From Thermoplasmatota archaeon (GTDB lineage Archaea > Thermoplasmatota > E2 > JACPAO01 > JAHFTW01): a stretch of DNA of 64,000 bases. Both the position numbers and the translations under genes were made by a program. Under the pieces are notes generated by a model, which worked only from the letters and a program-made list of their open reading frames with translations, had not been told where the DNA came from and did no database searches. Shown here piece by piece: positions 7,887 through 47,797 of this stretch (the stretch's first letter is position 1; every line of letters starts with the position of its first letter). The stretch lies in assembly GCA_041601615.1 (NCBI GenBank), contig JBFIHX010000004.1:64001-128000 (forward strand), in the 5' to 3' direction.

Positions 7887-9415
7887 GCAGGCTGGGCCGA
7901 AATCTGTTCCACGGCCTGCAATCCGACTGCTGCGTCCGCGAGGCTGTTGGCATAATACACCACGAGGTCCCAGCGATCAGCCCGCACCCGCCGCGCTTTG
8001 TCCCGCACCAATGCGTCCCGACGCTCCAGGACATCCAAGGCACGGTCAAGGACCTTGGTGCGCTCGTCGGCGGCGTCCACTTCATCCGCGATGGCGTCCG
8101 CATCCATGCCACCGTTGGGCAAATACGGATCCCCCGTGGCCACAGGGCGACCGTCACGCCGAATCTCCTCCAATACGTCGCGCAGCGCCAACAACAAGGT
8201 TCCTTCGTCCACGCCCTCTTCCATTCGAGCTTGCCCCACCCGCACGGCGGCGGCGCACACGGCAGTCACAGGAGTTGCTGGAACAGTGCGAGCAATCGCC
8301 TCCATCACGATTTGGCCAAACGGCAACAACGCTTCCTGGCGCACCTTGCGATCGGCGTCGTGCAAAAACGGCGCCTGCTTTGCATACCACTCGTCAAAGG
8401 AAATCGGCTCCCCAAAATGAATGGCCGCAACACCGTGCTTCTTGAGACGCCCCGAGAGGAGCCGACCAAGGTTCAAAGCCCCAATCATGGGGCCACGCAC
8501 CAGCAAACTTCCAAGACGCAGAAGCTTCACTCCGAAGCTGCGCCTCGCCCGGCGCGGGCGCCCGTGTGTTGCCTCGAAGACCATATTCTCGTCCTCAATG
8601 ACGCGATCAAAATTGATGCCGACCGGCACGAACACCAAGGGCTTGTCAAAGGCAGGGTCCAGTTTTGCCAGCGCCATGCTATCGAGCAGGCCAAGCTTCA
8701 CCGGCCGAAGTCGCCCATCCCGGCTGAGACCTCCCTCCGGAAACATCGCCTGCGTCACACTTTGCTTCGTAATCAATTCCACATACGTCTGGAGCGTCTT
8801 GTGGTACAGCGGATCCGTCTCGCCCCGACGCACGAAGTAAGAGCCAAACGATCGAAACAGGCCCTCCAAGGGCCAGACCCGTGCCCACTCCCCGACCGCG
8901 TAACTCACCTGCACGGACCGACTCAGCATGAAACCCGTGACCACAAAATCCGCGTTGCTGCGGTGGTTGCTGACGTACACGACGCTTGCACCTTCCGGAA
9001 TCGACGCCTGCGCACGGCTAAGGCTCTCCTGGTCGAGTCGCACATTGTACAGTGCATACGCGATGCGCCGACCAAGGCGATACCCGACCCGATAGTAGGC
9101 AAGCGGACTAAACTGCGGAACAATCTCCTCTAACCAAACCCGAACCCTCGCCTCCACGTCGTCATAAGACTCCCCGGCCCCCGTGGCCTGCTCCACCATC
9201 GCCTGCACCAACCCCGGCTCCGACAACACGAGCTGACGAACCGCACGGCGATGTGTATACCGAAACGGATCCTCCGGGATGCGCCGATCGCGCAAAAACC
9301 GATCCACGCGAGCCTCCTGACGCCGCTTGAAACCCGACACAACTAGGTGCCGCGCCCCCTCATAGAGCAACCAGCCCGAACCCGCCATGGGGAGCCACTG
9401 CCACCCCGAAGGCAT
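7883..9415 (-). CDS. Glycerol-3-phosphate / lysophospholipid acyltransferase (PlsB/PlsC superfamily)
   Basis: Catalytic NHRSNAD (HX4D), FVRR and FPEGGLSRDG blocks; start uncertain. Confidence 0.85.
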   Translation of the reverse strand: MPSGWQWLPMAGSGWLLYEGARHLVVSGFKRRQEARVDRFLRDRRIPEDPFRYTHRRAVRQLVLSEPGLVQAMVEQATGAGESYDDVEARVRVWLEEIVPQFSPLAYYRVGYRLGRRIAYALYNVRLDQESLSRAQASIPEGASVVYVSNHRSNADFVVTGFMLSRSVQVSYAVGEWARVWPLEGLFRSFGSYFVRRGETDPLYHKTLQTYVELITKQSVTQAMFPEGGLSRDGRLRPVKLGLLDSMALAKLDPAFDKPLVFVPVGINFDRVIEDENMVFEATHGRPRRARRSFGVKLLRLGSLLVRGPMIGALNLGRLLSGRLKKHGVAAIHFGEPISFDEWYAKQAPFLHDADRKVRQEALLPFGQIVMEAIARTVPATPVTAVCAAAVRVGQARMEEGVDEGTLLLALRDVLEEIRRDGRPVATGDPYLPNGGMDADAIADEVDAADERTKVLDRALDVLERRDALVRDKARRVRADRWDLVVYYANSLADAAVGLQAVEQISAQPA

Positions 9416-9548
9416 CCAGACCACGCACCGCAATCACCGCCCTCGACTTGAAACCGACGAAGCAGCGAAACGGCCCCCAAAACCCGATTCCTTTGCCCGC
9501 ACACCGCTAAACGCCCACCGCCGCCTGCGCTCCCGAAGGAACGAATCC

Positions 9549-9824
9549 ATGACCCGAGTAATCACCAGCGCCTGCGTCGGCACAAAAGACACCAGCTGCG
9601 TCGACGTCTGCCCCGTCGACTGCATCCACCCGCACAAAGGCGACGATGCGGACGCATTCAAACAAAGCTTCGACCAAGTCGAACACCTCTCCATCGACCC
9701 CGACGAATGCATCGACTGCGGCGCCTGCGAACCCGCCTGCCCCGTCGAAGCCATCTACCCCGACGACGAGGTGCCCGAAAGCGACAAAGAATGGGCAAAA
9801 ATCAACGCCGACTTCTTCGCATGA
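9549..9824 (+). CDS. Ferredoxin (dicluster, 7Fe-type motif), copy 1
   Basis: CVGTKDTSCVDVCPVDC and CIDCGACEPACP. Confidence 0.92.
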   Translation: MTRVITSACVGTKDTSCVDVCPVDCIHPHKGDDADAFKQSFDQVEHLSIDPDECIDCGACEPACPVEAIYPDDEVPESDKEWAKINADFFA

Positions 9825-9944: not shown

Positions 9945-10220
<276 letters not shown>

Positions 10221-10429
10221 GCAAGACCCCGAGTTCCTCTCTCCCCTCCTTCCAATTTGAGCCCCCGGTGGGTAAGTAGACGGAACCAGATCAGCGTACG
10301 CTCGGCGTTCGCGCTACGTGCGAAACCCATGGCTTCCTACCTGGAGCAACGCACGAGGCCGTCCAGGACAACAAAGTAGGGGAAAGGAAGGGGAAAGGGA
10401 AGAGATTCTCAAAGCTAGAGGCGACACGA

Positions 10430-10559
10430 GGCGTCGAAGAACCCACGCAGACCCCCCAAGGCCGTGCAAGCACGGCCTCGGGGTCCGCTCGGCCCAAGGG
10501 CCTCGCTGTCTTGCGCTGAACCTTTGGCGCTATTCAGCGCCAAAGAACCCGCGCAAGAC
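10430..10559 (-). mobile_element. Structured gene-end element at the secY stop with a displaced, recoded copy of the secY 3' end
   Basis: 10430-10450 encodes LRGFFDA versus LRGFFGA at 10536-10556; fold-back arm 10508-10531; core GGTCCGCTCG..CTCGCTG and CCGTGCAAGCACGG shared with 46416-46677; mobility is inferred. Confidence 0.65.
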
Positions 10560-12092
10560 GGGATGCATTTCCATCGCCTGTTCCTTCGCAATCTGCTCGT
10601 ACATGCGGATATAGATACCCACAGCCAAGAGCAAACCTGTCCCTGAAGCATTACCGATGGTTCCCAGCATGTCCGCCGTAGCCGCAAGGCCACCGACGAT
10701 TGCACCACCAAGAACCGTGATGGTCGGAATGTAGCGTCCCAGAATCTTCTGCAAGACACGCGGGTCGCGGCGGAAGCCGGGAATCTGCATGCCACTGCGT
10801 TCGATCTGCTTGGCGACCGCTTCAGGACCCATATTGGTGGTCTCGACCCAGAACTTGGCGAACATGATCGAACCACCAATGAAGAGCGACATGTAGATGA
10901 CGATCTTCAAGATGATCTGCCATGGCGCGTGGCCGCTGGCGAAGGCACCATAGGCGTCCGAGTTGAAAATCGGCAGGAACCAGTCACTGAGCCCATTGAA
11001 GGTACTCAGATACCAAGCGCCGCCGGCCACCGGTTGCAGACTCTGGCTGCCGGTCTGGTAGGTTCCGATCCACCAAGCATGCCCGATGACCGGGATCTTG
11101 CTGAAGAACGGGTGCTGCCAGAGAAGCAAGCTGAAGATGTTCACGTTGGCAATCAGCGCCGCCATCAAGATGACAGGGATGTTGCTGGCGTAGATCAACC
11201 GCAGCGGGTAGCGACCACGGGCGCCGCGCACCTTACCATGGGCAAGAGGCAGTTCCACGCGGGTACTCTCAGCGAACACCACGAACATGAAAATCGCCAT
11301 CGTGGCCAGGAAGGTCAGGATGGGATTGGGGAACGCTTGGTTGCCGATGAACATCTGCTCAAAGCCACCCTCGTTGACCAGACTGCGCAAGCTGCGCTGG
11401 CTGAACACGTAGATGACCATGGGCAGGGAGCCGCTGGGGGGATTGAACGTCGGGTCCAATGCCTGACCAGCCTGCGTCGGTTGCCAGTTGAGCGTTCCCT
11501 GGAACAGGGCTTGGCTCACACCGGCCGCGATGAACAAACTGATGCCGGAGCCGATGCCCCACTTGCTGATCAGTTCGTCCATCAGGAACACGACAATGGC
11601 ACCGAAGGCCAGTTGCAGCACAATCACGCTGCGGGCCATGCCGCCGCCGACCGCGTTGACAAACAAGTCGTCCGGTTCCAAGAAACCGTACACTTGCGGC
11701 ACGGATTCAATGAAGATGAACAAGAGAACCAGCACTTTCTGGGCACCTTGGTAGATCGCCTTGTCCTCGGTCTTCGAAAGATCGAGGTTGATGATCTTGG
11801 CGCCCGTGAAGAGCTGCATCACGATGCTGCCGGTGACGATGGGACCAATCCCAAGGTGCATGATCGTGCCGCTGGCACCGGCCAGGATGGCACGGAAGCC
11901 CTCGAAAATGTCGAGCTGTTGGGAGCTAACTCCGAACAGAGTGATGTTGGCCAGAGCAAAGTACAGCAGCAGCGAGCCGGTCGTCCAGAGGAGCTTCGTC
12001 TTGAAAGAGACGTGGCCCTCGGGCTTCCTGACCGCAGGCCAGCGTTCAATGATCGGTTTCAGTGCATAAAGGCGGCTTCGAGTCTCAGCCAT
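10530..12092 (-). CDS. secY: Preprotein translocase subunit SecY (archaeal type)
   Basis: MHLGIGPIVTGSIVMQL, KWGIGSGISLFI, LIYASNIPVIL, QIPGFRRD; follows rpl15. Confidence 0.97.
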   Translation of the reverse strand: MAETRSRLYALKPIIERWPAVRKPEGHVSFKTKLLWTTGSLLLYFALANITLFGVSSQQLDIFEGFRAILAGASGTIMHLGIGPIVTGSIVMQLFTGAKIINLDLSKTEDKAIYQGAQKVLVLLFIFIESVPQVYGFLEPDDLFVNAVGGGMARSVIVLQLAFGAIVVFLMDELISKWGIGSGISLFIAAGVSQALFQGTLNWQPTQAGQALDPTFNPPSGSLPMVIYVFSQRSLRSLVNEGGFEQMFIGNQAFPNPILTFLATMAIFMFVVFAESTRVELPLAHGKVRGARGRYPLRLIYASNIPVILMAALIANVNIFSLLLWQHPFFSKIPVIGHAWWIGTYQTGSQSLQPVAGGAWYLSTFNGLSDWFLPIFNSDAYGAFASGHAPWQIILKIVIYMSLFIGGSIMFAKFWVETTNMGPEAVAKQIERSGMQIPGFRRDPRVLQKILGRYIPTITVLGGAIVGGLAATADMLGTIGNASGTGLLLAVGIYIRMYEQIAKEQAMEMHPVLRGFFGAE

Positions 12093-12385
12093 ACGGTCAC
12101 CGGAGTGGAGCGAGCCGTCCAAAGGGGGCTCTGTCTTAAGTGCTCCCAAGGGGAGAACGGAGAACCTTGTCACACATCCCTAGTGAAGGGCAAAAAAGCG
12201 GGCAAAAACGGGGTGAAGCGCCACTCTACTAGATTTCGAGGCGAACAAACGAACATTCGGCGAAAGTGGAGATTTGCTTGAAGGGAAGCAAATGGTGCCC
12301 ACATGGCGGGCCAAGAGAAGAAAAGGAGGGGGAAATGGAGGGGAAATGGAGGGGGAAGGAAGAGGGCTGTGGCTTGTGGGCCGTC

Positions 12386-46415: not shown

Positions 46416-46677
46416 GGCTACGCCCTCGGCAAACCTAGGGTTTTGGCAATCACCACCGTCCCGTGCAAGCACGGGCCGAAGGATTCCTCGGGCTTCGCCC
46501 TAGGCATCGCGAAAACGACTCCCCCTCGCTACGCTCGGGGCAACCCTAGCGTTTTCGCGATCCCCTTCGTCGCCGGACAAGCCGGCACCGAAGGTCCGCT
46601 CGCTGCGCTCGCTGATTACCAAAACCCGTTTCCCTCGGGCTACGCCCTCGGCAAACCTAGGGTTTTGGCAATCACCA
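46416..46677 (-). mobile_element. Tandem pair of 111-bp structured gene-end elements with three copies of the acyl-CoA dehydrogenase 3' end
   Basis: Stop codons at 46640, 46529 and 46418 (111 bp period); 46416-46455 identical to 46638-46677; 46529-46561 encodes the same [10 protein letters not shown] with 7 synonymous changes; mobility is inferred. Confidence 0.8.
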
Positions 46678-47797
46678 TCCTCTGCACTTCCGACGAACCC
46701 TCGCCGATCTCACAGAGCTTGACATCGCGGAACATGCGCTCCACTGGGTAGTCCTTGGTGTAGCCGTTGCCGCCGTGGATCTGAATCGCCTCGGTGGTGG
46801 CCTTCATGCCGACTTCGGAAGCGTAGAGCTTGCCCATGCTAGCTTCTTGCGTGAACGGCTTGCCTTGGTCCTTGAGGACGGCGGCGCGTTGCAGCAGGAG
46901 GCGGGCCGCGTCAATCTGCGTGGCCATGTCGGCGAGTTTGAAGCTGATGGCTTGGTTGGCGGCGATGGGCTTGCCAAATTGCTTGCGCTCCTGGGCGTAG
47001 GCAAGGCTTGCGTCCAGCGCTCCCTGCGCGAGGCCAAGCGCGAGGCTGCCGATGGCGATGCGGCCAGCGTCGAGGGTCTTCATGGTGCCGACGAAGCCCT
47101 GTCCAATGCCGGCGTCGCCGCCAATGACGCGGTCGTCTGCCAGCCACAGGTCTTCAAAGTAGAGTTGGCTCGTGATGCTGCCGCGCATGCCAAGTTTGTC
47201 TTCCTTGTTGCCCATGTTGAGGCCTTTCTCGCCCTTCTCGCCAATGAACGCCGTGATGCCGTGCGCGCCCTTGGAGGGGTCCGTCTTGGCCATGATGGTG
47301 AAAGTGTCCGCGATGTGGCCGTTGGTGATGAATTGCTTCTGGCCATTGATGAGCCAGCCGTCGCCCTCGCGCACCGCCTTGGTTTCGAGGCCCGCCGCGT
47401 CGCTGCCCGCGCTCGGCTCTGTCAGGCACCAGGCACCGATTTTCTTGCCCTGCGCCATGTCCGGGATGTATTTTTGGACCTGCTCGGGCGTGCCTTGGCC
47501 GTAAATGTGGCTGATGCCGAGGCCGTTGTGGGCGGCGAGGCTCAAACTGAGGCTGCCACTGACGCGAGCAATCTCCTCGATGGCAATATTGTAGCTCACG
47601 GTATCGAGGCCGCTGCCGCCGTGCTCGGGCGCGACCGTCATGCCCATGAGGCCCATGGCGGACATCTCGGGGACCATTTCGGCGGGCCACCAATCCTCGG
47701 CATCCATCTTGGCTGCGATGGGGCCAACGCGGCTCTCGGCGAACTCACGCATGGTCTGGCGGATGAGCTCTTGCTCCGGCGTCGGTTGGAAGTCCAT
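46640..47797 (-). CDS. Acyl-CoA dehydrogenase
   Basis: [10 protein letters not shown]; [10 protein letters not shown]; ERKQFGKPI; QIHGGNGY; [10 protein letters not shown]. Confidence 0.95.

Follow-up and report, generated by a model that had tools for sequence, protein, structure and literature searches.

Behind the secY gene of a Thermoplasmatota archaeon lies a gene-free module of three hairpins (P1-P2-P3), about 80–110 nt long, which belongs to a lineage-specific set of such modules placed at the 3' ends of conserved genes and of tRNA genes in one Thermoplasmatota family. The anatomy of the module, its family, its targets, its patchiness, its conservation above the neutral level, an allele swap between congeners and the mostly silent divergence of its spare gene-end copies can be observed directly in the genomes compared. 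We read the module as a small recombining gene-end cassette that is exchanged between lineages, an explanation to which we give an even chance.

The locus comes from a metagenome-assembled genome (MAG; GCA_041601615.1, labelled G000) of 2.79 Mb in 30 contigs, which is 93% complete. The window is the whole stretch of DNA analysed, 64,000 nt at G000:C4:64001-128000, and positions are those of the window unless a contig or locus is named.

Anatomy of the element behind secY

The secY ORF, of the archaeal Sec61 type, matches the Pfam families SecY (233 bits) and Plug_translocon, the Sec61 plug domain (38 bits), and its C-terminus reads ...MHPVLRGFFGAE*. Three parts follow in the 145 nt behind the gene, namely the P1 hairpin, the P2 motif and the P3 hairpin, and after them comes a decayed copy of the gene end. 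The features are as follows.

10530–12173, minus strand: secY ORF, stop TAG at 10530–10532; the true start may be internal
10536–10559, minus strand: P1 5' arm, formed by the secY codons VLRGFFGA, the last eight before the final sense codon
10532–10535, minus strand: P1 loop GAAT, the final sense codon GAA plus the first base of the stop
10508–10531, minus strand: P1 3' arm, an inverted copy of the gene end that begins with the AG of the stop codon
10483–10507, minus strand: P2 motif, AGCGAGG-N-CCGAGCGGAC (pattern match at G000:C4:74483-74507)
10454–10482, minus strand: P3, a long hairpin with a CTTG loop, then GG; an inverted repeat with 14-nt arms (93%) that contains the 14-mer 10462–10475
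10430–10451, minus strand: decayed direct copy (echo) of the secY codons LRGFFGA, with no stop in place
10365–10405, minus strand: pyrimidine-rich tract

The two arms of P1 (10508–10531 and 10536–10559) are 24 nt long, 83% complementary and only 4 nt apart. Within the 3' arm, perfectly paired blocks of 9 and 10 bp stand on either side of a 6 x 6 mismatch block; the earlier note had described these blocks (10522–10531 with 10536–10545, and 10508–10516 with 10551–10559), and both were found where it placed them. P2 has a short stem and a small loop, flanked by an invariant GC-GA ... GA-GC. As RNA, the 138-nt stretch has a minimum free energy of -91.2 kcal/mol in the sense orientation (z = -8.9) and of -79.1 kcal/mol in the antisense orientation (z = -7.5). 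An Rfam scan of 10150–10750 returned seven weak matches, none at the gathering threshold (best 18.9 bits against a threshold of 100).

Between the gene end and its echo, a direct repeat of 19 nt (10431–10449 and 10537–10555) has 84% identity at a spacing of 106 nt. By codon, the seven codons differ at five, four synonymously and one not (GGC to GAC), so that the repeat LRGFFGA/LRGFFDA of the earlier note was recovered in place and with the silent differences reported for it. The frame of the distal copy also runs on to a stop at 10415 (...LRGFFDASCRL*), again as had been noted. Beyond the echo, the pyrimidine-rich tract marks native downstream DNA, since insert-free relatives have a like tract directly after the secY stop (L012, L013, L017, L018 and L023, compared with L009 and L010).

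An ORF of 154 aa without a Pfam match (10415–10879, minus strand) crosses the 3' part of secY and the element out of frame; this reading frame, which ends in the distal copy, is an artefact of the high GC content. A tandem pair of ferredoxin genes (Fer4; 9387–9824 and 9945–10220, both plus strand) converges on secY. The part common to both, 241 nt long, is repeated at a period of 395 nt; this is a gene duplication and not a gene-end echo.

Chance similarity and the assembly

Taken alone, the direct repeat at secY is weak and only marginally above chance. Its local score of 11.5 compares with a maximum of 9.5 in 20 shuffles, and a score of at least 11.5 was reached by 133 of the ~3,350 G000 ORFs against 45 in a reversed-sequence control. 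What makes the repeat convincing is that the same register, directly after the same hairpin, recurs in relatives. The 14-mer at 10462–10475, which the earlier note had found again at 46461–46474, occurs exactly twice in the window, against an expected count of 0.06, and two occurrences were reached in 1 of 100 shuffles.

Across the genome, 38 of the ~3,350 GC3-filtered ORFs are followed, at up to 400 nt, by a strong copy of their final 45 nt, compared with 3 in the control, which again was the reversed sequence. Among the top-ranked copies, which were the ones used (those ranked lower are trivial self-matches), the shortest have about 12 nt and the longest 199 nt, and their spacers can be grouped into a few families of hairpins.

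In a second sample, one contig (X2, 607 nt, 10222–10828) crosses the whole element with no differences, and in the assembled contigs of four DNA runs of one study no junction skips the element. In X3 and X4 the contigs end at the element edges (10420/10516 and 10238/10532), a coverage hole. We regard it as extremely improbable that the layout is a chance similarity or an artefact of metagenome assembly in which strains were mixed. The genome is indeed a MAG, and the direct repeat by itself scores no better than 45 ORFs of the control; but the second-sample contig spans the element without a difference, strong echoes number 38 genome-wide against 3 in the control, and the same layout appears in assemblies from many unrelated projects and assemblers.

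secY ends across relatives

At secY loci from 29 relatives, the final 45 nt of the gene were compared with the 400 nt downstream, with the following outcome.

10 of 29 relatives: clear secY-end copies (score 17–42; shuffle maximum at most 12), five of them with two copies
1 of 29 relatives: a weak secY-end copy (L016)
1 of 29 relatives: a secY-end copy interrupted by two 1-nt insertions (G002), visible only in pairwise alignment
13 of 29 relatives: no secY-end copy despite 797 nt of downstream DNA
4 of 29 relatives: downstream DNA too short to judge

Empty and occupied orthologous sites thus both exist among the relatives (10 clear and 13 without a copy). Every unit opens, directly after the stop, with an inverted copy of the gene end of its own species, and the arms track species-specific silent changes. 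Spacers of the P2 type lie behind secY in G000, G001, G002, G012, G015, G019, G020, G022 and G023; other spacer types were found in G010, G016, G020 (first unit), G021, G009 and G026. Unit order differs within one genus, running from type 1 to type 2 in G020 and from type 2 to a type 1 remnant in G012. Exact gene-end repeats at secY reach 42 nt (in G020). The hairpin DNA that separates the copies measures about 75–100 nt and has room for no ORF.

The earlier note had tied the duplicated gene end to the core of the element, here P2, and had named relatives that keep both copies without the core as evidence against its proposal. Relatives of this kind exist in part, as secY-end copies also stand behind spacers of other types (L019, L025, the first unit of L020, and L016), so the duplication does not depend on the core. 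Nor does the core imply a duplicate: secY of G022 (locus L032) has the arm, P2 and P3 and no gene-end copy. This locus and most of the tRNA cases described below, which likewise have no echo, indicate that carrying a gene end is not obligatory.

A second spacer type behind secY (L019, L020 and L025, from three genera) has an arm as long as ~37 nt, in which the mismatch blocks occupy matching places. Its linker is C-rich, and the reverse complement of that linker resembles P2-like words; the spacer may represent a module of the same kind in reverse orientation.

A swap of the live secY end between congeners

Two genomes, G001 and G002, are congeners of G000, with G002 the closest, and G003 is the outgroup. 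The secY genes of G000 and G002 have 86% DNA identity, and third positions are 65.8% identical over 500 codons (171 of 500 differ). Towards the stop, third positions differ in 9 of the 11 final codons, against 6 of the 20 just before. The ~65 columns that cover P2, P3 and the beginning of the distal copy contain a single mismatch and a single 1-nt gap (~97% identity) between the same two genomes. The P1 arm cannot be aligned between them at all, and identity breaks where arm and copy begin.

In G001, it is the middle copy, which is not live, that aligns to the live end of G000 and the beginning of the G000 arm (57 columns, score 39). In G002, the decayed distal copy aligns to this live end at 17 of 18 positions with one gap. 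The distal copy of G000 in turn agrees with the live end of G002 at 17 of 21 positions and with that of G000 itself at 16. The live secY ends of G001 and G002 resemble that of the outgroup. Over the last 33 nt of G000 secY, the best match from another genus reaches 27/33 against 23–24/33 for the congeners, whereas in the 60 nt before these the closest matches are the congeners (54/60); this discordance of nearest relatives along the sequence is suggestive and not significant.

Relatives that have no insert keep the same SecY C-terminus, ...PVLRGFFGAE, and the protein of G000 is unchanged by the swap. The earlier proposal that secY had acquired a replacement C-terminus from the element is thereby supported in part, as a silent swap of the last ~10 codons that is tied to the arm. 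Comparison of the last 33 nt with other genera and the congeners found no donor.

A dispersed family of modules

Among the 38 genomes of the order, a strict P2 pattern has 46 matches in 19 genomes, at 1–9 strict cores per genome. All matches are in family f1 (18 of 31 genomes besides G000); the six genomes of f2 and f3 have none, and the reversed pattern has none. Of 35 P2 instances inspected, 18 follow the stop of a long ORF on their own strand at a distance of 21–123 nt and at least five lie 27–52 nt behind a same-strand tRNA gene (Leu, Gly, Glu twice, and Leu). At one additional locus, 19 nt of a tRNA end are copied exactly. At tRNA genes P1 is self-contained and shares only the last 3–5 bases of the tRNA, and most of these cases have no echo. 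Orthologous targets recur across genera, namely secY, aEF-2 and genes whose products end in ...AAAGLGALFG* and ...HHEIDEVQV[IV]*.

Over 17 aligned copies of P2, GCGA and C-AGCG are invariant and the stem covaries, with double changes in three of six pairs; P3 was not in register in the MAFFT alignment, and its covariation was judged by eye. The module is invariably oriented like the gene upstream of it. Its sense strand folds better than the antisense strand in 40 of 42 copies, with a mean difference of -9.1 kcal/mol against -5.2 kcal/mol expected from composition, so that over half of the folding advantage is due to base composition.

Inspection by eye led us to discard two RNA readings. A bulge-helix-bulge intron would have exons that are unable to pair, and a K-turn, C/D or H/ACA RNA reading of P2 fails on tandem G-A pairs that have no 3-nt bulge and on the lack of box motifs.

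The window holds a second array of this family.

46416–46640, minus strand: array behind an acyl-CoA dehydrogenase gene (46640–47797, minus strand)

It runs in the order arm, P2 (46594–46613), P3, a diverged gene-end copy, a second arm with hairpin, and an exact copy. The second hairpin contains the shared 14-mer (46461–46474), and the exact gene-end copy is 38 nt long (~46417–46456).

Spare copies and arrays

Spare and live gene ends differ mostly at silent sites. In the relatives, spare secY ends differ from live ones at 47 synonymous and 9 non-synonymous codons, and at 5, 8 and 48 sites by codon position, a count that leaves out one gapped alignment. Among random single changes, 25% are expected to be synonymous. 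For 27 loci of G000, the corresponding figures are 96 synonymous and 65 non-synonymous codons, and 41, 30 and 118 by position; these come from 37 alignments, a few of them low-scoring and probably spurious. Some spare copies have up to 10 of 16 codons changed with no non-synonymous change, and such silent-only divergence indicates that the spare copies are not decaying local duplicates. Several are closer to the live ends of other genera than to their own, as in the middle copy of G001 (42/48 against 38/48). Silent differences taken over from paralogues in the same genome are impossible for single-copy secY; for the acyl-CoA dehydrogenases they are possible.

Four arrays of two units have unlike units, those behind secY in G001, G015 and G023 and the one at 46.4–46.6 kb of the window. 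In each, the outer copy is nearly identical to the live end (36/37, 26/27, 17/17 and 38/38) and the middle copy has diverged silently. In six tandem arrays of G000 with identical or like units, the nearer copy is the more similar one, and these arrays accordingly fit plain tandem duplication. Where units are near-identical, the tandem arrays have periods of 87–121 nt.

Search for an enzyme and the integron of G000

In G000, at 93% completeness, there were no hits for Y1 transposase (PF01797), reverse transcriptase, Cas1 or the TnpB-type domain (PF07282). Three tyrosine recombinase genes are present, none adjoining a module, and the repeats flanking them are only chance 15-mers. No link between the family and a recombinase or transposase was found.

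An integrase of the integron type is encoded in G000 (TIGR02249, 414.7 bits; cut-off 265; L119:850-2160, plus strand, which is G000:C16:15954-17264). Next to its gene, 11 attC-like repeats of ~75 nt each stand in a row (G000:C16:112-13888), and the genome has ~57 such repeats in all, on C1, C21, C25, C11 and other contigs. Archaeal integrons have reportedly been described in print already, and integron recombination uses folded single strands. The modules might on these grounds be products of the cell's own integrase, that is, attC-like folded hairpins that had entered gene ends, used as secondary sites, as empty cassettes, and the centre of the attC-like repeats has the word GCGAGCG...CGAGCGG in common with P2. 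We nevertheless consider this origin very unlikely and reject the link, because profile match and co-occurrence both fail. An nhmmer profile built from the attC-like repeats of G000 gave 57 hits at E up to 1, none of them at a gene-end module. Over the 38 genomes, an integrase above the cut-off is found in 9 and the core in 19, with no association between them (both in 5, integrase only in 4, core only in 14, neither in 15), and the core-bearing genomes without an integrase include one that is 94% complete in 10 contigs (G006).

How a gene-end cassette would act

We infer that the module moves at all, in which direction the end was replaced and how the joining took place. The cassette would join a gene within its last codons and bring along an intact, synonymous copy of those codons with the stop. 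In P1, this copy would make up the 5' arm and an inverted copy of it the 3' arm. Because an intact copy is brought along, an essential gene would stay whole. The resident gene end would be displaced behind P3 and would then decay.

Once in place, the gene-end copies could act as homology for further exchange. Units would then stack into arrays, be lost by loop-out or pass between lineages, and any intact copy might become the live one. At secY of G000, the live last ~10 codons would be an allele of the cassette type. An ancestral array like that of G001 (host-type, foreign-type, host-type) could have given rise to the layouts of G000 and G002 by two different deletions, and with such an ancestor and such deletions G000 would now be using the foreign-type end.

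Two candidates for the joining step are a site-specific or hairpin-directed strand exchange and plain homologous recombination. If a folded single strand with a stem that mimics its target were exchanged into the chromosome, then, by analogy with known hairpin systems, the product would read gene end, tiny loop, inverted copy, hairpins, gene end. A bolder form of this idea would make the modules a new gene-free mobile DNA that homes to essential genes and tRNAs, at their ends, by means of a folded target copy, in which the inverted arm and the gene-end copy form a site-mimicking stem, and that is spliced in by single-strand exchange and always restores the gene it has entered; we find this form doubtful. 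A role as the 3' structure of the message is possible as well and would be compatible with mobility.

Some observations count against the cassette reading. No recombinase or transposase could be linked to the family, the integron integrase does not co-occur with it, some copies lack an echo, and the search for a donor of the G000 end found none. Neither an excised form nor an empty allele was seen at this particular locus, and the reading does not explain how a module would refit its arm to a new gene. The six tandem arrays with like units fit plain tandem duplication, and the high conservation of P2-P3 is equally expected from a function in cis.

Such a cis function would be a structure, under selection in the transcript or in a single DNA strand, in which the stop codon is locked in a hairpin that protects or terminates the message. 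Nothing would move, and the spare gene ends would be by-products of how arms arise. We judge this rather unlikely as the whole account, even though much of the structural evidence suits it: P2-P3 is ~97% identical where silent sites are 66% identical, an invariant GC-GA...GA-GC surrounds a covarying P2 stem, the orientation is always the sense of the upstream gene, folding is better on the sense strand in 40 of 42 copies (-9.1 kcal/mol against -5.2 from composition alone), and the secY element folds strongly (z of -8.9 sense and -7.5 antisense). This reading could also hold for a mobile module that doubles as a 3' structure. A purely local structure does not predict intact spare ends that have only silent differences and resemble the ends of other genera. 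The modules are, moreover, patchy among close relatives, with 13 of 29 secY loci empty despite ample downstream DNA; unlike unit types occupy one site, in an order that varies between congeners; and Rfam has no match. Local errors of replication or repair are an explanation that we hold to be quite unlikely. Here template switching would produce a direct-inverted-direct triplication, slippage and unequal exchange would stack the units, and the shared motifs would reflect a bias to stable GC-rich hairpins and not common descent. The order direct, inverted, direct is what two switches would leave, the loop between end and arm is tiny at 4 nt, and arrays of near-identical units with periods of 87–121 nt are in line with slippage. 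Errors of this sort do not, however, account for a conserved P2-P3 stretch of ~55 nt that sits between the inverted and the second direct copy and is far more conserved than silent sites, or for a strict P2 pattern that is found 46 times in 19 genomes while its reverse is found 0 times.

Comparison with known systems

Folded single-stranded hairpins integrate at integron attC sites and, using Xer, in CTX-type phages, and the known systems of this kind recognise one fixed site. By analogy with them, a folded, target-mimicking stem would predict the order seen in the modules, and strand-specific folding would be a further likeness. The modules differ from them in stems that change at each locus, in the lack of a match to the attC profile and in the lack of co-occurrence with IntI. 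In quasipalindrome or template-switch inverted triplications, a short segment is present as a direct, an inverted and again a direct copy and the loop is very small; the modules share both this copy order and the tiny loop. Unlike such triplications, the modules enclose a conserved foreign P2-P3, and their spare copies have silent differences foreign to the lineage.

MITEs, REP/BIME elements and IS200/IS605-derived palindromes resemble the modules in being short, gene-free, hairpin-rich and dispersed just behind genes. In contrast to MITEs, the arms of the modules vary by locus and match the local gene, and there are no family-wide terminal repeats and no target duplication of fixed length. 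In contrast to REP/BIME and IS200/IS605-derived elements, the copy number is low (1–9 strict cores per genome), and G000 has no Y1/RAYT transposase or TnpB. Judged by defining features, the modules fall outside MITEs, REP/IS200-derived elements, attC sites, plain products of template switching and all families in Rfam.

Archaeal integrated elements insert in the 3'-distal parts of genes and tRNAs with an att duplication by tyrosine recombinases, reconstitute the gene end and form arrays at one site, and ef-2 is a known target of thaumarchaeal casposons (PMC6563490). The modules agree with these elements in several ways: the targets are the 3' ends of conserved genes, aEF-2 included, and of tRNAs; the insert is flanked by a direct repeat of the gene end; the element can provide a new end and stop codon; and arrays arise through re-use of one site, with empty and occupied sites among relatives (PMC6563490). 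The modules stand apart by an insert of only ~60–130 nt with no gene and no fitting ORF, by a repeat length of ~12 to 199 nt, by an inverted gene-end copy directly after the stop and by the lack of a linked integrase (PMC6563490). MITE-like sRNA elements of a different kind have been described (PMC6009581). Full-text literature searches returned no account of gene-end hairpin modules of this kind. The modules are best filed as a miniature form of gene-end integration.

If the cassette reading holds, a passenger of ~100 nt can silently rewrite the ends of core genes again and again while the protein stays the same. Such rewrites are easy to miss and would distort codon-level and phylogenetic signals at gene ends. 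A strict motif, orthologous targets and natural empty sites make the modules a testable system for the making and moving of gene-free hairpin modules. For annotation, spare gene ends and extended false ORFs such as 10415–10879 should not be called genes.

Modules at further loci

The aEF-2 gene of G000 (G000:C5:74500-74680, which is L003:1440-1620) is followed by the same type of module with a 21-nt copy of its own end, and the orthologous site is occupied in G005, G020 and G017 as well. Beside an opposite-strand tRNA-Lys gene of G012 stand four tandem P2 units with a period of 149–153 nt (L138:1500-2000, which is G012:C124:8860-9336). At L123 (G000:C4:203700-204100; gene at C4:203967-205280, minus strand), a module separates two genes that, in its absence, would overlap by ATGA. 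The upstream gene is terminated there by the proximal copy, and the distal copy, exact over 21 nt, supplies the start region of the downstream gene.
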